From NCBI GenBank assembly GCA_005191425.1, contig SUPR01000071.1, positions 1-18,913 of the forward strand: DNA of 18,913 nt, written 5' to 3'. Within the stretch, counting starts at the first letter, position 1; every line of letters begins with the position of its first letter. The position numbers and the translations under genes were made by a program. Source of the DNA: Candidatus Helarchaeota ASGARD archaeon Hel_GB_B (GTDB lineage: Archaea; Asgardarchaeota; Lokiarchaeia; Helarchaeales; HEL-GB-B). Below are positions 4,500 to 18,913 of this stretch, in pieces. The notes below the pieces were generated by a model. It worked only from the letters and a program-made list of their open reading frames with translations, searched no databases and was not told where the DNA came from.

Positions 4500-5681
4500 T
4501 TAATCTCTTTCAATAATAAGCGTCATACCTTGTCCACCGCCGCCACATAAAGTAGCCATTCCAATGTTTAAATTTCGTTTAATCATTTCATATATTAAAG
4601 TTACAACTATTCGGGCACCTGTACATCCTACTGGATGGCCTAATCCAATCCCTGAACCATTTACATTAGCAATTTCTCTATCGAACCCTAATAATTTTTC
4701 TGCTGTCAAATAACAGGCAGCAAATGCCTCATTACATTCAACTAACTCCATATCCTTAATTGATAATTTTGTATTTTTTAGTGCCTTTTTTGTAGCAGGA
4801 ACAGGTCCTTCACCCATATAATATGGGTCTACTCCTGCAATACCAAATCCCTTAATGGTCGCTAATGGTGTCAACCCTAATTGATCCGCTTTTTCTTTAG
4901 ACATTAATATTAATGCTGCCGCTCCATCATTAATCCCTGATGAATTTCCCGCAGTTACTAGTCCTCCCTTCTTAAAAACAGGTGGTAATTTAGCTAATTG
5001 TTCCATTGTAAGACCTGGCCGAAAATGCTCGTCTGTATCAAAAACAATCGGGTCTTTTTTATGTTGAGGAACTTTAATCGGGACAATTTCATCTTTAAAT
5101 CGTCCATTATTTGTTGCTTTTTCTGCATTTTTATGCGACCTTAGTGCAACTTCGTCTAATTCTTCACGAGTAAATCCATATTTCTCACATAAATTTTCAG
5201 CAGTCTTCCCCATTATTATATCAAACCCAGCATGTAGTCCTTGATATAATCCATCTACAAACGTAATATTTGAGTTGCGATATCTAACACCCCATCTAGT
5301 ATCGAAACTTAAAAATGGTGCATTAGACATTGATTCAACACCACCCGCTAAAACTATATCCATATTTCCAGTTTGGATATATAGTGCACCCGAAACTATA
5401 GCTTCCATACCACTGTCACAAACTCTATTTATTGTAACTGCGGGAACATCAACAGGAATTCCTGCTTCAACAGCTGCCACGCGCCCAACATTCATCTCAT
5501 CTATGCGCTCCATACAACACCCCATACGAACATCATCAATTAAGTTTGATCCCAAATGAATTCTATTGATAGCCGCCTTCATTACTTCTGCTGCAATTTT
5601 CTTCCCAGTTAGAGGCTTTAAAGAACCTCCAAATTTTCCAATTGCTGATCTACATGCACTTAGAATTACTACTTCATTCAT
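4500..5681 (-). CDS. Acetyl-CoA C-acyltransferase (thiolase)
   Basis: RSAIGKFGG, NRVCDSG (nucleophile Cys), GNSSGINDGAAA, NEAF, GHPVGCTG (His) and LCGGGGQG (second Cys). ATG5681 is preferred over GTG5690. Confidence 0.95.
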   Translation of the reverse strand: MNEVVILSACRSAIGKFGGSLKPLTGKKIAAEVMKAAINRIHLGSNLIDDVRMGCCMERIDEMNVGRVAAVEAGIPVDVPAVTINRVCDSGMEAIVSGALYIQTGNMDIVLAGGVESMSNAPFLSFDTRWGVRYRNSNITFVDGLYQGLHAGFDIIMGKTAENLCEKYGFTREELDEVALRSHKNAEKATNNGRFKDEIVPIKVPQHKKDPIVFDTDEHFRPGLTMEQLAKLPPVFKKGGLVTAGNSSGINDGAAALILMSKEKADQLGLTPLATIKGFGIAGVDPYYMGEGPVPATKKALKNTKLSIKDMELVECNEAFAACYLTAEKLLGFDREIANVNGSGIGLGHPVGCTGARIVVTLIYEMIKRNLNIGMATLCGGGGQGMTLIIERD

Positions 5682-6090
5682 AAAATTCACTTTAATTAGT
5701 TTTTAGTAAAAAAATAAACGAATAATGTCTATTTAATTATTTTTTAAAAAATCCAAAATCAAATTTTAGAGAATAGTATAAATTATTCTAATTATTACAA
5801 CTCTCCTAATTTGAATTAAAAAATGATCTTGTTTTTATGTTGACATATTTTATTTTTTAGAAAAATAAAAAATGGATTATTTAATTACGAATTTATTATA
5901 TAGAAAAGTTTTGTGTTTAAGAATTTTATATTGGATAATTGATTTAAATTGGATTTTTTCAAAAGGTTTTTACATAAATTATAAATAAATTAGAAAAGAA
6001 TTTTCCATAACTCTTTTTCTTTATTTCTACTTTTTTAAAGAATAGAAAAAATATATTTTTAATATTAATGAGATATGGTGATTTTTTATT

Positions 6091-6633
6091 ATGGACTCGA
6101 GTGAAAAATATGCTTTCAAAATAGTTGTGATTGGAGACCCGGAGGTCGGCAAAACATCATTAATAAGACGATTTTCAAATAATTCATTTGATGAAAATTA
6201 TAAGGCAACGGCTGGAGCTGATTTTGATATAAAAATTTTAAAAATTAACGACCTAAATATTTTCTTAACAATTTGGGATATTGGTGCACAAGAACGATTT
6301 GGGACAATTAGAAATTATTATTATAGTGGTGCAGATGCCGCGATTTTAGTATATGATGTTACTAATTCCAAGTCCTTAGATTCATTAAAATCTTGGGATG
6401 ATGATTTTCTAAAAGCATCGATAGTTTCAAATCCTCGTATAATTGTTGGTAATAAGATAGATTTATTGGACAAAGATGAATTAAAACAAGACAAAGCTTT
6501 ACAATTTGCCCACGATAGAAATTTAAAATTAATTCTAACTTCTGCAAAAAATAATTTTAATGTAGAAAAAATTTTTGTTGAGATTTCTAAGTTATGTCTT
6601 GAAAAATATAATTTAAATGTAATTTACAAATAA
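6091..6633 (+). CDS. Rab-like small GTPase (Ras superfamily, Asgard type)
   Basis: G1 GDPEVGKTS, G2 Thr in ATAGADF, G3 WDIGAQERF, YYSGA, LVYDVT, G4 GNKID and G5 TSAK. No C-terminal prenylation cysteines. Confidence 0.92.
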   Translation: MDSSEKYAFKIVVIGDPEVGKTSLIRRFSNNSFDENYKATAGADFDIKILKINDLNIFLTIWDIGAQERFGTIRNYYYSGADAAILVYDVTNSKSLDSLKSWDDDFLKASIVSNPRIIVGNKIDLLDKDELKQDKALQFAHDRNLKLILTSAKNNFNVEKIFVEISKLCLEKYNLNVIYK

Positions 6634-6699: not shown

Positions 6700-7641
6700 T
6701 TAGAATATCTTGTATAATGGGCTTTGTTTATTAACATTTCTAAATTTATTAATTCGTATTGCATTATATGTTAAAATTGAATCGTTCATTGCCATCATTG
6801 GAAATATATATGAACAATAATTAATTGGGCCATACAAGAAGAAATCTGCGCCCATAGCTTGGGGAAGTGAGTGTATAAAGACATTTTTTATTTTTTTAAT
6901 ATTGCTATCATATGATTCAAAATCCTTTAATTTAGTCCAAGTATGTAATGCGTTATGAGTGCCACACCCTGAAGGATAACCCAACTCTTTTTTTATTTGA
7001 TAAATTGTTCGGGCATTAATTGCGACTGATGGGACATCTAAGGTAGCAACATCAATTAAAATATTTTCTATCCCTGCTTTTTCTGCTTTTTTAAGCAGTC
7101 CTTCCTCATTTTCTGTTCCTTTAATAAGTTTCATCTTATCATTTGGCCATATATATCTATTATGAAATGCTAAAAGAATGGCACTTTTAATTTTTGCATT
7201 TAAAATCGCATTAATTTCTTTTTCATCAATATGGGGGTCGATAGAATTATAAATAATTCTATTTGACAGCCCGATGTCTCCAAAATGGTTTATTGCAGGT
7301 ATTCTTATATCAGCATTTGGCCCACCTGGGAGCAATGGTGCTTCCGTCTTATCTGCAACAAACTCAACTAACTTAATCAATGCATCTGGCGTCTCTGCGC
7401 CACCCCCGACATCAAATCCATGGGTCAAACCAGTCTTATCTGCGATTTCAATCTGTTTATTAATTAGATCTTCGGCTAATTCTTTATTAAAATCACCGGT
7501 CTTTGGGTTTTTCAGTACTTTTGCAGAACGCGCTTTATAAAATATTGACCCTATCAAAAACAATGGATTTTCCCCTATTTGACCTCCAATTTTTATACCT
7601 GCAATTTCAAAAACCTTTTGCTCTTTTTCAAATAAAAACAT
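6700..7641 (-). CDS. mtrH: Tetrahydromethanopterin S-methyltransferase subunit H family (stand-alone)
   Basis: N-terminus MFLFEKEQKVFEIAGIKIGGQIGENP..IGSIFY matches MtrH; also IYNSI, GYPSGCGTHNA and GADFFLYGPI. Confidence 0.9.
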   Translation of the reverse strand: MFLFEKEQKVFEIAGIKIGGQIGENPLFLIGSIFYKARSAKVLKNPKTGDFNKELAEDLINKQIEIADKTGLTHGFDVGGGAETPDALIKLVEFVADKTEAPLLPGGPNADIRIPAINHFGDIGLSNRIIYNSIDPHIDEKEINAILNAKIKSAILLAFHNRYIWPNDKMKLIKGTENEEGLLKKAEKAGIENILIDVATLDVPSVAINARTIYQIKKELGYPSGCGTHNALHTWTKLKDFESYDSNIKKIKNVFIHSLPQAMGADFFLYGPINYCSYIFPMMAMNDSILTYNAIRINKFRNVNKQSPLYKIF

Positions 7642-8186: not shown

Positions 8187-8801
8187 ATGTCAACACCGAC
8201 AAAAAAATCTGAAAAATGGTTGAGTGATTTAGGAAAATCAATTTTAATTTTATCAGAAAATGGAATTTTGATCTCTGAAATAGTTAATAAATTACAAAAA
8301 AGATATAATTCAAAACAAACTTGTTGGGCTTCTATCTCAAGGACGTGTCGGATTCTTGCCAATAAAAACTTATTGGAATTATTTAAAAAAAATAACAGAG
8401 TTGAATCTGTCCAGACAACTTTAAAAGGAAAACAATTGATACGTGATTTATGTACTGACTTAGAAATTATTGCTATCAATCAATCCATTAAAAAATATCG
8501 TAATATCAGTGAAAATCTTAAAGAAAAATTAAATTTCTCAAATAATAATATGGAATTAATTAATAGTTATGAAATTAAGAAATTAATTTTAGAAATCCTA
8601 GCTAAATACGGTGAATTAACTCTTACTGGTATATCTCAGTGTGTAGACCTCCCAACTCCAATCTTATCTAAAATTCTAGACAACATGAAGGAAAATAGCT
8701 TAATCTTGCAGAATTCTCTTTCTGATAAAAATGACTATATTAAATATCAAATAAATTGGAAGTATTTATTTTTACCAATTAAAAATATAAATAAAAAGTA
8801 G
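8187..8801 (+). CDS. Tandem winged-helix (MarR/ArsR-like) DNA-binding protein
   Basis: Domain 1: ILISEIVNKL...WASISRTCRILANKNLL...VQTTLKGKQL. Domain 2: LILEILAKYGELTLTGISQCVDLPTPILSKILDNMKENSLI. Confidence 0.7.
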   Translation: MSTPTKKSEKWLSDLGKSILILSENGILISEIVNKLQKRYNSKQTCWASISRTCRILANKNLLELFKKNNRVESVQTTLKGKQLIRDLCTDLEIIAINQSIKKYRNISENLKEKLNFSNNNMELINSYEIKKLILEILAKYGELTLTGISQCVDLPTPILSKILDNMKENSLILQNSLSDKNDYIKYQINWKYLFLPIKNINKK

Positions 8802-8811
8802 TGAAATTAAA

Positions 8812-9561
8812 ATGGATGTGTATTTTGGTGATATTCAAGATATATCTACAATCGATTATCCTGGTGAAGTAGTATCTGTGTTATTCTTCTGTGGATGTCC
8901 AATGCGTTGCCCATTTTGCCAAAACTTTAATCTTCTAAATTATTCGGATTGTCAAAAAGTTTCCGTAGAAAAAATTATTGACCACATTAAAGATTCAGCC
9001 CCTTTTATTACTGGAATAGCAGTAACTGGTGGTGAACCTTCTCAACAAATTGACCAACTTATTGAGATAATTAGTAAAGTTAAAAAACTGGATCTATTAA
9101 CAAAAATAGATACTAATGGTTATTATCCAAAAAATCTTAAGACTATCTGTGATTTAGATATTGTCGATTATTTTGCAATGGACATTAAAAACGAGCTCAC
9201 TCCAAAATCCTATGCAAAAGCTACCGGGCTCTCTTCTATTTCTGGAAATAAACTCATTAATCGTATAAAACAATCTATTCAAACAATAATTAATTCTAAT
9301 GCTATTTTTGAAGCGCGAACAACTATTGTCCCATCAATTAATGACTCTGATAAGGTAATTGAAAATATTTGCGAAAACATTTCTGGAGTTAATAGATATG
9401 TCCTACAACAGTTTAGGTGTATTGACCAAGTTCTCGATAAAAAGTTCGCAGACGTTCCGTCCCCAACACGAGAGCAATTAATTCATTACGCCGAAATAGC
9501 AAAAAATTACATCGATGACATAAGAATAAGGACTGCTGAACATGGTGAAGAAAGAATATAG
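8812..9561 (+). CDS. nrdG: Radical SAM protein, anaerobic ribonucleoside-triphosphate reductase activating protein family
   Basis: STIDYPG..SVLFFCGCPMRCPFCQN (CxxxCxxC), VTGGEP, KIDTNG, AMDIK, EARTT and YVLQQF. The symbol is a family-level call; no target enzyme lies in the window. Confidence 0.85.
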   Translation: MDVYFGDIQDISTIDYPGEVVSVLFFCGCPMRCPFCQNFNLLNYSDCQKVSVEKIIDHIKDSAPFITGIAVTGGEPSQQIDQLIEIISKVKKLDLLTKIDTNGYYPKNLKTICDLDIVDYFAMDIKNELTPKSYAKATGLSSISGNKLINRIKQSIQTIINSNAIFEARTTIVPSINDSDKVIENICENISGVNRYVLQQFRCIDQVLDKKFADVPSPTREQLIHYAEIAKNYIDDIRIRTAEHGEERI

Positions 9562-9571
9562 CACTCTCAAA

Positions 9572-11305
9572 CTATATCAATTCTGCAAATTCTAAATCTG
9601 TCTTCGTAAGCTCTTCGTGGCAATTTGGACATTTGCCTTCCTTTTCTACAAAATCATAAAATTCTTTTTTATGTACTTCTTTATGACAATATGGACATTG
9701 AATTGAATCCGGACCTAACCATTTGCCACAAATTATACACCTTTTCAATTCTTTATTACAATATGCACATACTTTACTGTCATTCTTTATAGAATGATTA
9801 CAAAAAGGACATATATCAAAAACAATCTCGGGCTTTTGCTCTATTACTTCTTTTTTTTTCTTAAGAATATCTAATAAAGCACTTGTGTCAACGTCAATTG
9901 CTGCTTTATCTTCTTTTAATTCGGCTTGATTAATTTCAATATTATTTTCAAGATCAATCGAAGCATCAGGTGTTCCTCCTAATTTCTCATCGTCAATTGC
10001 AGGTGGCGCTTCTAGAAATTCATCGACCAAATCTGACTCATCATCTGAACTAGGTGGTGGAATATTAATGTCTAATAGTGGTATTTCTTCAACTTCTTCC
10101 TCAGCTTCTTTTTCAAATTTTTCCTCAATTAATTCTTTCTTTTTTTCTGATTGTAATTTATCGACAAGTTCAATTTTATCTTCAATTGTCATTTCTTCTT
10201 TTTCCTGAATTTCATCTTTACTTTCAGAGATTTTTTCTGTTTCAGGTAAACTTTCTAAAATAGGTCCTTCTTCAATTGATGGCTCTTTCTCTGATGGCAT
10301 TATTTGCTCTTGTTCTTTAGGAATTTCTTGAACTTCACCATCCATTTGTTTTTTATCTTCTACGATTAAATTCTCCTGAACATTTAATTTTTGTGCAATT
10401 CTTTCTATAACTGATAAATGCTTGACTGGTCTTTTATGTATATCTTCTTTAATTTCTTCATCTTGTTTTTGTATTTGGTCTTCCTTTATTTCAATTTGTT
10501 CTTGTTGTTCTTGTATAGGTACTGTTTCTGGCTCTATTAACTGAGTTTGGTCATCTTTCTCTAATGGGGCAATTTCAACGTCCTCTATAATTTCTTCACC
10601 TTGAATTTCTGGTGGTATTTCTAAAAATGTTTCATCAATTATTTCTTCAGATGACGATGGAGGTTCATTTATATCTAAATACTCTATTTTTTGTTCATTT
10701 GAATCTAAATTTCCAACTGGGATTGGAATATCCATTTCGCCTGTTTCTAAAAAATCGCTAGATTGCTCTAACTCCTCTTCACCAGTTTCAAATGTTAAAC
10801 TTTTATCAACAAGATCTACTTGCCCTTTAATTTCATTGTTAGCAATCATATCTATAATAATCTCTTCAATCTCTTCAATAGAAACTCCCACATTTTTAGA
10901 TATATATTCAAAAGTAATATTTTTGAAAGCGCCGCTTTTCATTATTTCAAATATAAATTTTTTTACATTTGGTAATTTCATAAGTTCTTCTTGTTTTAAC
11001 CTAAAATCCCTAAGCATTTGCCTGGTTTCATCACCTAATTCTTCCCACATTTTTAAATATTTTTTATCTTCATCCCCTAAGAATTTCAATTTAATTTTTG
11101 TGTCCATAATTTTATATACATTGTTATATAAGTTTTCAAATTCATTTTTAAAATTAGATAACTCATCATCTAAATATTTTAATGCAATTTCCTTTCCATT
11201 TAATTCTAATTGGACATTAAATTCTTTTGCTATATCTATTAACTTCTTTTCTAAATCCCTTAATATTTCTAAATTTCGGTCATATATCGATTTTATTGAA
11301 CTCAT
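9572..11305 (-). CDS. Multidomain protein: helical N-terminus, PCI-like winged helix, long acidic disordered linker, double zinc ribbon / RING-like C-terminus
   Basis: aa ~113-173 read KNITFEYISKNVGVSIEEIEEIIIDMIANNEIKGQVDLVDKSLTF; aa ~175-495 are very E/D/Q/P-rich; aa 499-562 hold five CxxC pairs plus His. Confidence 0.8.
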   Translation of the reverse strand: MSSIKSIYDRNLEILRDLEKKLIDIAKEFNVQLELNGKEIALKYLDDELSNFKNEFENLYNNVYKIMDTKIKLKFLGDEDKKYLKMWEELGDETRQMLRDFRLKQEELMKLPNVKKFIFEIMKSGAFKNITFEYISKNVGVSIEEIEEIIIDMIANNEIKGQVDLVDKSLTFETGEEELEQSSDFLETGEMDIPIPVGNLDSNEQKIEYLDINEPPSSSEEIIDETFLEIPPEIQGEEIIEDVEIAPLEKDDQTQLIEPETVPIQEQQEQIEIKEDQIQKQDEEIKEDIHKRPVKHLSVIERIAQKLNVQENLIVEDKKQMDGEVQEIPKEQEQIMPSEKEPSIEEGPILESLPETEKISESKDEIQEKEEMTIEDKIELVDKLQSEKKKELIEEKFEKEAEEEVEEIPLLDINIPPPSSDDESDLVDEFLEAPPAIDDEKLGGTPDASIDLENNIEINQAELKEDKAAIDVDTSALLDILKKKKEVIEQKPEIVFDICPFCNHSIKNDSKVCAYCNKELKRCIICGKWLGPDSIQCPYCHKEVHKKEFYDFVEKEGKCPNCHEELTKTDLEFAELI

Positions 11306-11943
11306 ATTATCTCGCAGTCATTTTCAATTTTCCAATTAAAATAATAAATTTTTGATTATTTAAAAATCTCTTCATCTATTTTAGATTAATTTTTGTCGGC
11401 ATTTTGATTAATTTAAATCTATGAATATAGATATTTCATAAAAAAATAATTAATTTTGGCTTGATTGAATTTTTTTTATATTTAAGTAAATATTTTTTAA
11501 ATTTTTTTTGTTTATTAATACATTTAATATTTAATTATTTAAAAAATTTATTAGATAAACTAATTTTTTGATATCCTTCATGATTTTATCAAGTCGCTTT
11601 AAATATTCATTTAATTTTTAATAATTTAATTAATTTCTTTTTAATTAATAATCAAATTTAAATTTGCTTTATAAATATTTTAATCAAAAAACTAAACGAA
11701 ATTCCAAAAATTAAATAATATAAAAAATAATTTGATAATTGGAATCAAATATTAAAAGAATTTTAAATCTGAATCTTATATTGAAAATATAAAAATAGTA
11801 AAATTGAATCTTCTGTTCTTTTACTACAAAAATAGAGATTATCTATTCTTGATTACTTTAATTTACTATAAAATAATATAATTTTGATAAATAATTTACC
11901 ATAATAAATTAAATTAAATTTTTATTTTATTTTATTGATAGAA

Positions 11944-12135
11944 ATGACCAAAACTAATAATAAAAATTGTAATAAAAATTCTAAGAAACAAATTTATTTC
12001 GGTGTTTTTGGATGTTGTAATTATGGTGCGTTAATGAGTGAAGAGCGATTGAAAGAAAAATTAAATGAAATCTATGAAATACTCGAATTTAATCATTTTA
12101 TAAATGCTATTGAAAATTTGAAAAATATTCGATGA
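11944..12135 (+). CDS. Possible small protein with an FGCC motif
   Basis: ATG11944 opens 63 codons ending 43 nt before the next gene; contains a helical-looking C-terminal half. No family recognised. Confidence 0.35.
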   Translation: MTKTNNKNCNKNSKKQIYFGVFGCCNYGALMSEERLKEKLNEIYEILEFNHFINAIENLKNIR

Positions 12136-12178
12136 TTCATAATCATTTTTAAATACTAGCAATATATTTTAAATCTAT

Positions 12179-13447
12179 ATGTATGATGTAATAATAGTTG
12201 GTGCTGGACCAGCAGGTGGATTTGCAGCTAAAACGCTGTCAAAAGATGGATTTCGAGTTTTATTGCTAGAAAAGAAGAAATTCCCTCGTTTTAAGCCTTG
12301 TGGAGGTTGGATTACTAAAAAAGTCATTCAATATTTGGGTTGGAATGTTAATAATTTGAATGACATAATAATTGAACCGATTAAATCTGGGGTCTTATGG
12401 TTTAAAGATGATGATAATCTTTATCACCCTTATACAACTGAATTTAGGACCCCTGTAAGCTATGGTATCCTTAGAATTGAATTTGATTCTAAAATAGTTA
12501 ATGAAGCTATTTCGAGTGGTACTGATTTTATTGATAATTCGGAGATAAAGAAAATCAATGTATATAAAGATAAAATAGTCGTTCAAAACCAACATGGTCG
12601 GGAATATAAGGCTCGGTTAATTATAGGTGCTGATGGGACATACAGTCAAGTAGCAAAACAAACTGGAATTCGTTCACATTGGAAACAGGACGAGCTCACA
12701 TTATGTTGCGTATCTGAAACAAAGATAGGGCGGACAAAAGGTAAAGAATTAACAGAATTTTTCGGATCACCTGAATTATTTTTTAATTTTAATACTAAAG
12801 GTTATAGCTGGTTTTATACTAAAGGCGATTATCTAAATATTGGTACGGGTATGCGGATGTCTCTTCATTCTTCAAACTATAATTTAAAGCGGCAATATAT
12901 GGACTTCTTGGACGTATTACATCAAATTAAGCATTATAATAATTTAAAACTCTCTCCAATTAAAGGACATAGTTATGCTGTCTTTTATGGACCTTATAAT
13001 TATAAAACTTTTAGACGTAGAGTTTTTTTAGTCGGGGATGCTGCAGGTTTTGCGACTAATTTAACAGGAGAAGGAATTCGTCCTGCTATTATTTCTGCAA
13101 AATTGGCAGCTCAAACCATTAAAGAAATCCTGAAAACTTATGATAAAGAAATAATTCTGAAAAAGATTTTTAGAAAATATGAAATTAGATGGAAAAAGGA
13201 ACTTGGTATTGAATATACATTTGGGTCTATAGCTCAATCATTTTATACTCCAAAATTATTCCCAATTTTTAAAAATCTAATAAAATTTGATGATTATTTT
13301 AGAAAATTGTTTTTTAAAATGTGTTTTAATATAGGTGACACTGAAAAAACAATAAGAGAAATGTTGCTTAGAGCTCCTGCGCTTGCATTAAAATTAGCGA
13401 GTTCCGGCTTTAGGTCATTAATCAATTCATTATTAGGTAAGTTATAA
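12179..13447 (+). CDS. Geranylgeranyl reductase family FAD-dependent oxidoreductase
   Basis: YDVIIVGAGPAG dinucleotide-binding motif, EKKKFPRFKPCGG, IGADG, GYSW, LVGDAAG...TGEGI..A..SAKLAA. Confidence 0.9.
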   Translation: MYDVIIVGAGPAGGFAAKTLSKDGFRVLLLEKKKFPRFKPCGGWITKKVIQYLGWNVNNLNDIIIEPIKSGVLWFKDDDNLYHPYTTEFRTPVSYGILRIEFDSKIVNEAISSGTDFIDNSEIKKINVYKDKIVVQNQHGREYKARLIIGADGTYSQVAKQTGIRSHWKQDELTLCCVSETKIGRTKGKELTEFFGSPELFFNFNTKGYSWFYTKGDYLNIGTGMRMSLHSSNYNLKRQYMDFLDVLHQIKHYNNLKLSPIKGHSYAVFYGPYNYKTFRRRVFLVGDAAGFATNLTGEGIRPAIISAKLAAQTIKEILKTYDKEIILKKIFRKYEIRWKKELGIEYTFGSIAQSFYTPKLFPIFKNLIKFDDYFRKLFFKMCFNIGDTEKTIREMLLRAPALALKLASSGFRSLINSLLGKL

Positions 13448-16995: not shown

Positions 16996-18913
16996 TTATT
17001 GAATAGCCATTTCCAATTTTTTACGCTTTGTAATATCATTTGCTATTCCAAGAATTGCATAAGGTTTTCCTTCTTTATAAAGTAATGATCCTTCTGTCTC
17101 TACCCAAATATATTTACCATCCTTTCTTTTAATTTTGAATTCAAAACGCTCTTTTAAAGTGGGGTTTTTAATAAATCTATTAAGAATCTCAAAAGCCTTC
17201 GGTACTTGTTCTTTTATTATTATTTTTTCAAAATTAAGTTTATGTATTTCATCTTTGTTATATCCTAATAATTCAAATGCTTTTTTATTTGCTTCTAAGA
17301 AATTTCCTTTAAAATCATGGACATATATTGCATAATGACTCCTGTTAAATATTGCTACATAACGTTCAGTCGCTTCTTTCATTTTTTGAATTGCTTTTCT
17401 ACGTTCGGTAATATCTGATATCATAATTAAATTTGCACTTCTGCCTTTATATGTTATGCGTCGTGTATAATTTTCGACCCATATAATTTTGCCTGATTTT
17501 GTTATACCTCTAAAGGAATATTGAATTTTCTTGCCCTTTTTGCTATTTATCTGGGCTCTTATTTTTTTTATTATCTTGTCTCTGTCTTCAATATGAATCA
17601 ATTTTTGATATTCATCTGCGCTCCATTTTGAAATTTCTTCAGGTAAATACCCAAAAATATCAGCAAATGTATTATTAAAATATTTTACTTCTTTATCTTG
17701 GACAATGCAAATTCCCATTATAGATTGTTCAGCTATAGTCCTAAATTTTTCTTCTGATTCCTTTAATTTTAATTCCATTTCTTTTTGTTCAGTGATATCT
17801 ATCACTGTAGATAAATCTGCATTTGATCCTTGAAAATGAACTCTTTTTACATATAAATCCCAGTGCCTGATTTTTCCATCTTTGGTAATAATTCTAAAAT
17901 TTAAATGATTTGGAACATTTTTATCGCCTCTACGAAGTCTTCTTGCAATATCCATTACATAATCTTGATCCTCTGGATAAATTACTTTTTTATATTCTTC
18001 AGGCCCCCAACTTGTTAATTCTTTTACTGAATATCCTGTCAATCCTTCTATTGCTTTATTTACATACTTTATAATTCCATCTTGAATAACAAAAATACCC
18101 ATTAAACTCTGATTAGCTATACTTCTAAATTTTTCTTCTGATTCTTTTAGTTTTTCTTCAGCTAACTTCCTGTCCGTAATATTTCTTATAAAAATTCCCA
18201 CTCTATCCTCTGAAAAATATAAAGCTCTCGCCTCAAAATACATCAATTTATTATTTATAATTTGACTATATTCCATAATTTGTGGCTTTTTTGTCTTCAA
18301 AACTAATTTAATCTTCTCGCTAGCAGTATCTCTTAAATCCTTAGGTAAATATTGGACTATCTTCTTACCTAAAAATGCTCCAGGAGAAAAAACTTGAGTA
18401 AGTTCACCTTTATATTCAACAATAGTATTGTCCTTAGAAACTAAAAAATATATATCCGGAATTGATTCGTAAATTCTCCTAAACTTTTCTTCAGAGTCCT
18501 TTAATTTTTTCTCCGCTATATGTTTAGATGTTATATCTCTAATAATTGTTAATACTTGAATTACTTTTCCCTCCCTAAAAATTGGGATCTTATTGGTCTC
18601 GGTAAATATCTCTTTTCCTCTAATCTCTATTTTCCCCTTTGTATAAAGTGGCTTACCTGTTTTTATTATCTTTTCATATTCACTATGAAGCTCCTTGGGT
18701 AAAAAAGGAAAATTCTCAAATACTGTTTTACCTATTGAAATAGGTTGTAATTTTAATTCTTTTAACCATTTTTTAAAAGGCGGATTAATATATATAATTT
18801 TTAAATTTAAGTCTACCACATGTATCGCATCTGTCATAGAATTCAAAATCAATCGATACTGTTCTTCAGACTTCTTTAATTCAAGCTCAACCTTCTTTTG
18901 TGGCGTTATATCT
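16996..18913 (-). CDS. 5'-partial multi-PAS sensor protein (five complete PAS/PAC units in the window), no C-terminal output domain
   Basis: Repeated DIT.RK..E..LKESEEKFR linkers. The frame is open past TTG18852 to the window edge (DITPQKKVELELKKSEEQYR), implying at least one more PAS upstream. Ends DITKRKKLEMAIQ*. Confidence 0.9.
   Translation of the reverse strand, partial: DITPQKKVELELKKSEEQYRLILNSMTDAIHVVDLNLKIIYINPPFKKWLKELKLQPISIGKTVFENFPFLPKELHSEYEKIIKTGKPLYTKGKIEIRGKEIFTETNKIPIFREGKVIQVLTIIRDITSKHIAEKKLKDSEEKFRRIYESIPDIYFLVSKDNTIVEYKGELTQVFSPGAFLGKKIVQYLPKDLRDTASEKIKLVLKTKKPQIMEYSQIINNKLMYFEARALYFSEDRVGIFIRNITDRKLAEEKLKESEEKFRSIANQSLMGIFVIQDGIIKYVNKAIEGLTGYSVKELTSWGPEEYKKVIYPEDQDYVMDIARRLRRGDKNVPNHLNFRIITKDGKIRHWDLYVKRVHFQGSNADLSTVIDITEQKEMELKLKESEEKFRTIAEQSIMGICIVQDKEVKYFNNTFADIFGYLPEEISKWSADEYQKLIHIEDRDKIIKKIRAQINSKKGKKIQYSFRGITKSGKIIWVENYTRRITYKGRSANLIMISDITERRKAIQKMKEATERYVAIFNRSHYAIYVHDFKGNFLEANKKAFELLGYNKDEIHKLNFEKIIIKEQVPKAFEILNRFIKNPTLKERFEFKIKRKDGKYIWVETEGSLLYKEGKPYAILGIANDITKRKKLEMAIQ

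Follow-up and report, generated by a model that had tools for sequence, protein, structure and literature searches.

What is the function of an archaeal protein that carries a PCI-type domain at one end and a RING-like zinc finger at the other, with a long acidic stretch between them? We asked this of P0001, a gene on the reverse strand of an 18,913-nucleotide stretch of DNA (hereafter, the window) from contig SUPR01000071.1 of Candidatus Helarchaeota archaeon Hel_GB_B (contig C153 in our labelling; genome G000, 3.54 Mb, 93.7% complete). A first-pass annotation, made from the sequence letters alone, had read the gene as a single polypeptide in which a PCI-like domain is joined to a zinc-binding tail through an acidic tether of ~320 amino acids (aa), and had suggested a ubiquitin-ligase-like or adaptor role. 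The 577-aa open reading frame (ORF) is indeed open throughout, and the linker (aa 175-493) measures 319 aa, of which 31.3% are Asp or Glu, with a net charge of -68. The start codon assigned to P0001 is correct, because its MSSIKSIY start lines up with the N-termini of all orthologues, in both of the subfamilies described below. From profile searches and structural models, we propose that P0001 is most likely a RING-type ligase for ubiquitin or a ubiquitin-like protein, or an adaptor of such a ligase, specific to the lineage Helarchaeales. We place the probability of this reading at about one half.

The argument starts from the tail. The annotation had listed a Cys/His pattern at 9620-9811 (aa 499-562) in which one RING ligand is replaced by Glu and the usual Trp by Phe, and every residue is as listed. 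The pattern consists of a zinc ribbon followed by a finger with the ligands C523, C526 / C537, C540 / H545, E548 / C559, C562, and with F552 at the Trp position. To place it, we used an alignment (A2) of 40 zinc ribbon plus RING modules, namely 8 family orthologues and 32 copies from outside the family, of which 31 come from other Asgard genomes and one is a 76-aa RING protein from the ubiquitin-ESCRT cluster of this genome. The consensus of the 40 copies is CxxC-x10-CxxC, a five-residue spacer, and CxxC-x11-13-CPxC-x4-H-x2-H-x3-[W/Y/F]-x6-CPxC. Against PDB sequences, the A2 profile matched the finger to RNF24 (5.2e-8), Arkadia (2.4e-7) and RNF126 (1.1e-6), and also to RNF165, RNF38, EL5, synoviolin (Hrd1), AMFR (gp78) and RLIM, the ligases ranging from 5e-8 to 2e-4. 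At E<=1e-3, Pfam zf-RING_2 matches 20 of the 40 modules and Prok-RING_1 matches 25.

Structure prediction agrees with the RING-like tail that the annotation had proposed. The tail model built from the 40-sequence alignment has a mean predicted local distance difference test score (pLDDT) of 91.2. In Foldseek, its last ~50 residues superpose on the Rad18 RING (1.2 Å over 49 residues), RNF165 (1.4 Å over 48) and the Prp19 U-box (1.3-1.5 Å over 50), with Ring1B/Bmi1 at 2.1-2.5 Å. We have high confidence, on the strength of this model, that the tail would adopt a RING/U-box cross-brace fold after one plain zinc ribbon. Site 2 would then be formed by C537, C540, C559 and C562, and site 1 by C523, C526, H545 and Glu548; the latter would be an unusual Cys2-His-Glu site, fixed throughout the family. 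The fold and the ligand order are those of the RING-H2 ligases (RNF24, Arkadia/RNF165, RNF38, EL5) and of Prok-RING_1 and zf-RING_2, but in P0001 ligands 3/4 are C-x2-C and not C-x-H, and ligands 5/6 are H-x2-E and not H-x2-C. Also kept are I524, which follows ligand 1, F552 in the place of the Trp, and the proline P560 of CPxC; we take these to be the E2-contact positions of RING-H2 ligases.

The annotation had left room for three plain zinc ribbons instead, that is, independent sequential sites whose likeness to a RING would be a coincidence of Cys spacing. Pfam DZR (PF12773) does cover aa 499-540 (C499..C516 plus C523..C540), at 32.3 bits in the whole protein and 40.8-41.6 bits in the tail alone (cut-off 27.3); Zn_Ribbon_1 reaches 27.8 bits (cut-off 25), and generic ribbon families match many copies of the module. 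DZR exceeds its cut-off because the model takes the ribbon together with the first two knuckles of the RING for a double ribbon, and this membership is compatible with a RING since the second half of DZR corresponds to RING ligands 1-4. A third ribbon, however, would be left with only C559, C562, H545 and a Glu. Moreover, the profile matches RING-H2 fingers beyond the cysteines (H-x2-H/C, the aromatic residue, CPxC), and the model fits RING and U-box structures at 1.2-1.5 Å. The alignment with WDR19 (IFT144), a eukaryotic relative of the module, is in line with this: both CPxC pairs, which supply ligands 3/4 and 7/8, are retained together, whereas the 1/2/5/6 set has largely decayed, with ligands 2, 5 and 6 no longer Cys or His. 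Such retention is expected of cross-brace pairing, with ligand pairs 3/4 and 7/8 on one zinc, and not of sequential pairing. We consider three separate ribbons very improbable; model and profile put one ribbon and a cross-brace finger in their place. Outside the family, 31 of the 32 aligned copies have the ribbon; within it, the second orthologue subfamily lacks it.

Could such a finger serve a ubiquitin system in this organism? The first reading presupposed that the genome has one, and it does: it encodes ubiquitin, three ubiquitin-conjugating (E2)/UEV genes, a ubiquitin-activating (E1) enzyme and eight JAB/MPN matches. A ubiquitin-ESCRT cluster (G000:C128:54560-66130; L058) holds MIT/ESCRT-like genes, UEV-Vps23 (258 aa), a 102-aa ORF, the 76-aa RING, ubiquitin (82 aa), an E2 (150 aa; C128:61259-61708) and an E1 (429 aa; C128:64844-66130) that has a ubiquitin-like insert. 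Its layout is that of the Helarchaeial cluster whose E1, E2 and RING ligase (E3) reportedly ubiquitinate UEV-Vps23 in vitro (preprint 10.1101/2023.07.25.550441). The 76-aa cluster RING (G000:C128:60541-60768; L009:753-980), which scores 27.0 bits with zf-RING_2 against a cut-off of 27.3, matches the P0001 tail at 4.6e-9 with ~33% identity. On this sequence evidence the tail is homologous to the small RING of the cluster and, given the activity described in the preprint, we regard it as a paralogue of a finger with a reportedly active orthologue.

The resemblance is to one module and not to the whole protein. The small RING E3s of archaeal ubiquitin operons, such as the Helarchaeia cluster RING (10.1101/2023.07.25.550441) and Caldiarchaeum srfp (PMC6043591), have the same RING module, and the cluster RING and P0001 share the pattern CxxC-x13-CPxC-x4-H-x2-[H]-x3-aromatic-x6-CPxC. 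The small operon E3 consists of the RING and a short loop N-terminal to it, with His as the sixth ligand, and its gene belongs to the ubiquitin-ESCRT cluster. In P0001, the sixth ligand is Glu and the RING is accompanied by a zinc ribbon, a 320-aa tether and a PCI head; the P0001 gene lies elsewhere in the genome.

The tail module is widespread. We detected it in 206 of 301 Asgard genomes, often in many copies in each genome, within open frames of 67 to 3558 aa; because many copies per genome occur in frames of such different length, we regard it as a mobile module. Two genome families of the same class as this genome (f3 and f4) have mostly single, weak module matches per genome (E 1e-4 to 1e-6), and a cluster-type E2 was found in 0 of the 13 of these genomes searched at E<=1e-15. 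Most of the other Asgard families have many module copies and an E2. A word-indexed search retrieved only two close orthologues with the whole protein and only the tail itself with the tail, and exhaustive searches and genome surveys were needed.

At the other end of the protein, the annotation had placed a PCI-type winged helix at 10787-10969 (aa 113-173). Pfam PCI (PF01399) matches at 35.9 bits in the whole protein (E 9.5e-10) and at 39.0 bits in aa 1-185 (cut-off 22), spanning aa 107/109-173 and profile positions 23-83 of 84; a search of the genome locates the same match at 10787-10987. PCI is the sole Pfam family above its cut-off in the head. A phmmer search of PDB sequences returned CSN2, Rpn9/PSMD13 and CSN4 as the best matches, all over the winged helix. 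Foldseek, queried with the whole-protein AlphaFold (AF2) model built from three sequences, matched the N-terminal part to CSN2, CSN3, CSN4, Rpn6 and eIF3 subunits at probabilities of 0.99-1.0, with E values of only 2e-3 to 3e-2 because the query was the whole 577-aa model.

The AF2 model places three long antiparallel helices (4-36, 38-72 and 78-124) ahead of the winged helix, which is predicted as strand 129-131, helices 132-139 and 143-155, and strands 161-164 and 169-172. A winged-helix fold preceded by a helix resembles solved PCI subunits, and the same arrangement is seen in CSN2, CSN4, Rpn9/PSMD13, Rpn6 and the eIF3 PCI subunits. The P0001 head differs from those of the CSN, the lid and eIF3 in its size (~175 aa), in the three-helix bundle predicted for it and in having no C-terminal bundle helix after the winged helix. 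With VIA-align, the helical part of the whole model matched only generic three-helix bundles (spectrin, RRF, syntaxin Habc). Of 14 bacterial and archaeal control genomes, 4 also yielded Pfam PCI matches, in one case above the cut-off. Because the bundle looks plain in the model and control genomes match too, we call the head a PCI-type winged-helix domain and not a lid, CSN or eIF3 subunit.

PCI complexes were described as unknown in archaea in 2018, and archaeal systems as having small RING proteins only (PMC6043591). PCI-like winged helices in archaea appear as accessory domains in an ESCRT survey (PMC10936438), which was their only mention in the literature that we searched. The present genome has 8 PCI and 8 JAB/MPN matches over the cut-offs. 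Contig C56 holds adjoining genes on the same strand for a JAB/MPN protein (310 aa, 47 bits; L056:4181-5113, -) and a small PCI protein (175 aa, 24.3 bits, cut-off 22; 5465-5992, -), a pair worth noting in view of the statement that archaea have no known PCI complexes.

Winged helices also occur in transcription factors. A winged helix together with a zinc ribbon is a common layout of archaeal regulators, and P0001 could be read as a DNA- or RNA-binding regulator with a winged helix-turn-helix and zinc ribbons in a TFE-like layout. The NCBIfam TFE alpha model gives a weak match (E 2.3), and DZR is over its cut-off in the tail. However, the winged helix is not better matched by a transcription-factor family: in the Pfam search none outscored PCI, whose nearest runners-up were DUF7646 (E 0.005) and wHTH-PRTase_assc (E 0.015). 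Moreover, the protein is strongly acidic (net charge -77 overall and -7 in the head), and the tail is predicted to fold as a cross-brace. A nucleic acid-binding regulator is in our view a highly doubtful reading.

Is the combination of head, tether and finger a chance arrangement? An exhaustive search with the head found a small family. The orthologues P0002 (580 aa) and P0003 (628 aa) are 49% and 44% identical to P0001. Five full-length proteins of 446-544 aa (P0006/7/8/11/12), at ~25-29% identity, belong to a second subfamily. The second subfamily has the same layout, with a head, a Pro/Glu-rich linker that contains related motifs, a RING with H-K-x-E, and a C-terminal D(I/V)(E/A)F(S/N)xLL. 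The architecture is not due to chance, because orthologues at these identities keep both end domains. The head positions R10, N11, L15, K70, F75, W87 and P112 are kept in both subfamilies, and D570, F573 and L576 of the C-terminal motif are invariant in all eight orthologues. Judged from the sequences, the PCI-RING family is under constraint, with the end domains and several linker motifs kept down to ~25% identity. The survey of Asgard genomes that the annotation had called for found the complete head in only 2 of the 301, this one and one of the same order, and the winged helix alone elsewhere. Within this sample, the N-terminal head family is thus found only in Helarchaeales. The nearest relatives of the P0001 protein in NCBI are likewise from Candidatus Helarchaeota.

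The tether is predicted to be disordered (pLDDT <50) except for one helix at 374-403 (AF2). The linkers of the orthologues vary from ~196 to 378 aa and are likewise acidic and rich in Pro. P0001, P0002 and P0003 nevertheless share a series of linker motifs, namely MDIPIPV, LDIN-x-PP...DE-x-FLE-x-PP (in two copies), KP-x-K-x-(I/L)S(I/V)IERIA(Q/K)(K/R)L and VDVDTSALLDI. The tether positions invariant down to the second subfamily (~25% identity) are D211, P216 and P232 in the first repeat copy, E301 and A304 in the KRPVKHLSVIERIAQKLN motif, E327, and P434. The linkers of the second subfamily also contain a Lys/Glu-rich stretch. A regular-expression search of this genome for LDIxxPP...FLExPP, FLExPP and the C-terminal DLEFxELI found none outside the P0001 gene; because they occur in no other gene, these linker and C-terminal motifs are not a shared docking signal in this genome.

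How would a ligase or ligase adaptor of this design work? The RING finger would engage a charged E2. The PCI head would dock the protein, either to itself or to other winged-helix, PCI or MPN proteins, and through its motifs the tether may hold substrates or partners close enough for the RING to reach. When the tail (A2) was co-folded, without control runs, with three zinc ions and the E2 of the cluster (alignment A4), the score was 0.00, the mark being 0.32; this result counts neither for nor against binding. In design, and in design only, P0001 resembles the UFM1 ligase scaffold UFL1-DDRGK1, the docking part of which likewise consists of PCI-like winged helices. VIA-align matches aa 112-186 weakly to DDRGK1 (8c0d_E; Z 9.4, root-mean-square deviation 7.7 Å over 72 residues). 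UFL1 has no RING, unlike P0001.

Several observations weigh against a ligase or a ligase adaptor. Ligand 6 is Glu (E548), within an invariant H-K-x-E, in 8 of 8 orthologues. The tail scores below the Pfam RING cut-offs, with 17.8 bits for zf-RING_2 (PF13639; cut-off 27.3) and 14.7 bits for Prok-RING_1 (PF14446; cut-off 29.1). A linchpin Arg or Lys follows ligand 8 in many active RINGs; in the orthologues this position is H, E, G, N, K or Q and is not conserved. The best PDB matches to the whole module are the C-terminal domains of IFT-A and GATOR2 proteins. The helical part of the head is modelled as a plain three-helix bundle and not as the TPR-like solenoid of lid and CSN subunits. Finally, the P0001 gene is not adjacent to any ubiquitin-system gene.

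The first of these points concerns the chemistry of the finger. All 32 aligned copies from outside the family, the 76-aa cluster RING included, have His at ligand 6. By this alignment, Glu548 is a fixed trait of the family and no sequencing accident; H-K-S-E also occurs in one other small ORF of the genome, on contig C115. Seven of the eight Cys/His ligands of a RING are present and, because ligand 6 is Glu548, we file the tail as a RING variant and not as a canonical RING. Glu or Asp can ligate zinc, and U-boxes hold their fold without any zinc; therefore, the substitution cannot tell an active finger from an inactive one.

The matches to IFT-A and GATOR2 bring in the chief competing explanation, a non-catalytic scaffold in which the ribbon plus RING tail and the PCI head would both be joining modules and the tether would collect partners, without ubiquitin transfer. 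Over the whole module, the A2 profile matches IFT144/WDR19 at 7.5e-9 (positions 4-86; orthologues from four species), together with IFT122 and the GATOR2 proteins MIOS, WDR24 and WDR59; the single tail sequence alone matches IFT144 at 3e-4. In Foldseek, the best matches over 76-83 columns are the tails of IFT144/WDR19 and IFT122 (template-modelling score 0.59-0.63; for IFT144/WDR19, 0.63 over 83 columns and E 2.2e-4). The tail structures matched are PDB 8fgw_C, 8bbg_A, 9a2d_F, 8f5o_B and 7uhy. The order, a ribbon and then a RING-like finger, and the spacing are as in P0001. The C-terminal domains of IFT-A and GATOR2 proteins have been described as modules that join subunits and not as ligases. 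WDR19 shows that relatives with a degenerate site 1 exist, for it has kept the CPxC pairs and lost ligands 2, 5 and 6. The family-specific fixed Glu and the lack of a conserved linchpin residue fit a scaffold as well, and PCI domains are assembly modules (PMC10936438). A related observation is that the C-terminal RING-like domain of alpha-COP gives a weak HHpred match to Prok-RING_1 (PMC4678705, 2015).

Other evidence speaks against a scaffold. Seven of the eight ligands are still in place in P0001, as are the hydrophobic positions for E2 contact, and its nearest sequence relatives are full-ligand Asgard RING modules, including the RING of the ubiquitin-ESCRT cluster. The IFT-A and GATOR2 proteins are large eukaryotic beta-propeller and solenoid proteins, whereas P0001 has neither propeller nor solenoid, and IFT144 has lost most site-1 ligands. 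The Pfam families Zf_2nd_IFT121 and zinc_ribbon_16 are below their cut-offs in P0001. The first zinc finger of IFT144 (PF23146) had no match at E<=1e-4 in 101 Asgard genomes or in controls, although this 25-position model is uninformative at genome scale. P0001 works like, or is related to, the IFT-A/GATOR2 tail module and is no member of those families. We consider a scaffold without ubiquitin transfer a real possibility, if on balance an unlikely one, and continue to favor a RING-type ligase or ligase adaptor.

How new is this architecture? The annotation had described it as unrecognized, and this part of the claim fits the literature that we searched, in which no paper combines Asgard with IFT144, GATOR2 and RING. 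It does not hold for the domain pairing. A paralogue on another contig (G000:C152:12855-13955; L055:3853-4950, -), 365 aa long and the only other ORF of the genome detected with the head, carries a PCI-like winged helix and, directly after it, a zinc ribbon and two RINGs. It is 44% identical to P0001 over 36 aa of the winged helix (E 2e-5) and 28% identical over 114 aa of the ribbon and RING (E 2e-15). The domain order is the same, but the paralogue lacks the tether and has two RINGs, with His at ligand 6. Its RINGs have the full set of ligands and exceed the zf-RING_2 cut-off (32.3 bits). It lies directly downstream of a gene for a 367-aa RWD/UBC-fold protein (L055:5058-6161, -), and a similar compact protein is found in another Asgard family (G009). 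Because the pairing of winged helix, ribbon and RING recurs in this way, the P0001 family appears to descend from a compact protein of this make-up that acquired a long tether by insertion. We also count the recurrence in favor of a ligase or ligase adaptor. P0001 stands out by its long tether with motifs and by its conserved Glu ligand, and not by the domain pairing itself. We rate it as a RING protein of the archaeal Prok-RING_1/RING-H2 type with a previously unreported head, tether and ligand variant.

Table 1. Features of P0001 in window coordinates
Feature	Residues	Position	Strand	Basis
Whole gene P0001 (577 aa plus stop)	1-577	9572..11305	-	ORF list and translation
N-terminal helical region (predicted)	1-124	10934..11305	-	AF2 model, pLDDT 62-83
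PCI-type winged helix	125-173	10787..10933	-	Pfam PCI match, reaching back to aa 107 (nucleotide 10987)
Acidic tether, predicted disordered	174-493	9827..10786	-	Asp plus Glu content, charge, pLDDT
MDIPIPV motif	191-197	10715..10735	-	M-D-x-P-I-P invariant in P0001-P0003
Repeat copy 1, LDINEPPSSSEEIIDETFLEIPP	210-232	10610..10678	-	Local alignment with copy 2
Helical motif KRPVKHLSVIERIAQKLN	291-308	10382..10435	-	Conserved in P0001-P0003; predicted helix 299-306
Lys/Glu-rich predicted helix	374-403	10097..10186	-	pLDDT ~69-79, sole ordered part of the linker (AF2)
Repeat copy 2, LDINIPPPSSDDESDLVDEFLEAPP	411-435	10001..10075	-	P434 invariant in both subfamilies
Helix preceding the zinc domains, IDVDTSALLDILKKK	470-484	9854..9898	-	Conserved in P0001-P0003; predicted helix 475-486
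Zinc ribbon CPFC-x10-CAYC	499-516	9758..9811	-	Pfam DZR, Zn_Ribbon_1
RING-type cross-brace finger (predicted)	523-562	9620..9739	-	40-module alignment, profile, model
C-terminal helix motif DLEFAELI	570-577	9575..9598	-	Predicted helix 568-576

The window is AT-rich (guanine plus cytosine (GC) content 17-32%). We looked for an operon link between P0001 and ubiquitin genes and found none; the genes that adjoin it instead encode an NrdG-type activase, a winged-helix protein, MtrH, a small GTPase, a thiolase and an FAD oxidoreductase. One neighbor is constant. A radical-SAM activase of ~250 aa, of the NrdG2 type of anaerobic ribonucleotide reductase activases (TIGR02495, 168 bits, cut-off 131), is the convergent 3' neighbor of the PCI-RING gene in 5 of the 5 contexts examined, in both subfamilies (window 8812-9561, +; L072:9754-10503, L073:3159-3914, L074:5672-6424 and L075:5589-6341). 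The other neighbors differ between the two subfamilies. The conserved adjacency may reflect a functional link or merely a preserved local order.

Beyond the activase lies a 204-aa ORF (8187-8801, +) without a Pfam family and with a faint match to SdpR-like winged helices; in the P0002 context, a 202-aa gene with no Pfam match on record holds the same slot beside the activase. Farther along are an MtrH-family methyltransferase subunit (6700-7641, -) and a Ras/Rab-family small GTPase (6091-6633, +; Pfam Ras, 152.7 bits). On the 5' side of P0001, an extremely AT-rich stretch of 870 base pairs (11306-12178) with no convincing ORF separates the gene from a divergent FAD-dependent oxidoreductase gene (12179-13447); GC content is 16.6% over 11001-12000. 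A 618-aa protein with several PAS domains is encoded at 16996-18852 (-).

What does this protein mean for Asgard biology? Archaeal ubiquitin systems are usually described with only one or two tiny RING proteins (PMC6043591). P0001 indicates that an Asgard lineage builds a large modular RING protein, in which a PCI-type head and a 320-residue motif-bearing tether accompany the finger, a design that typifies the ligases and adaptors of eukaryotes. The fixed Glu poses a question of its own: is it part of a working Cys2-His-Glu site in an active ligase, or a first step toward a scaffold finger like those of IFT-A and GATOR2? A more speculative view, which we hold only tentatively and think improbable, is that P0001 is an archaeal hub that links a PCI-type assembly module to a RING through a eukaryote-style tether. 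Its tail would then belong to the two-part module found at the C-termini of eukaryotic IFT-A and GATOR2 (protocoatomer-type) subunits. The widespread Asgard module would be the prokaryotic forerunner of those joining domains, and the P0001 family, with its decaying site 1, would represent the step from ligase to scaffold. If it proves true in a proper phylogeny, the link between the Asgard module and IFT-A/GATOR2 would bear on the origin of the tails of eukaryotic coat-related proteins.

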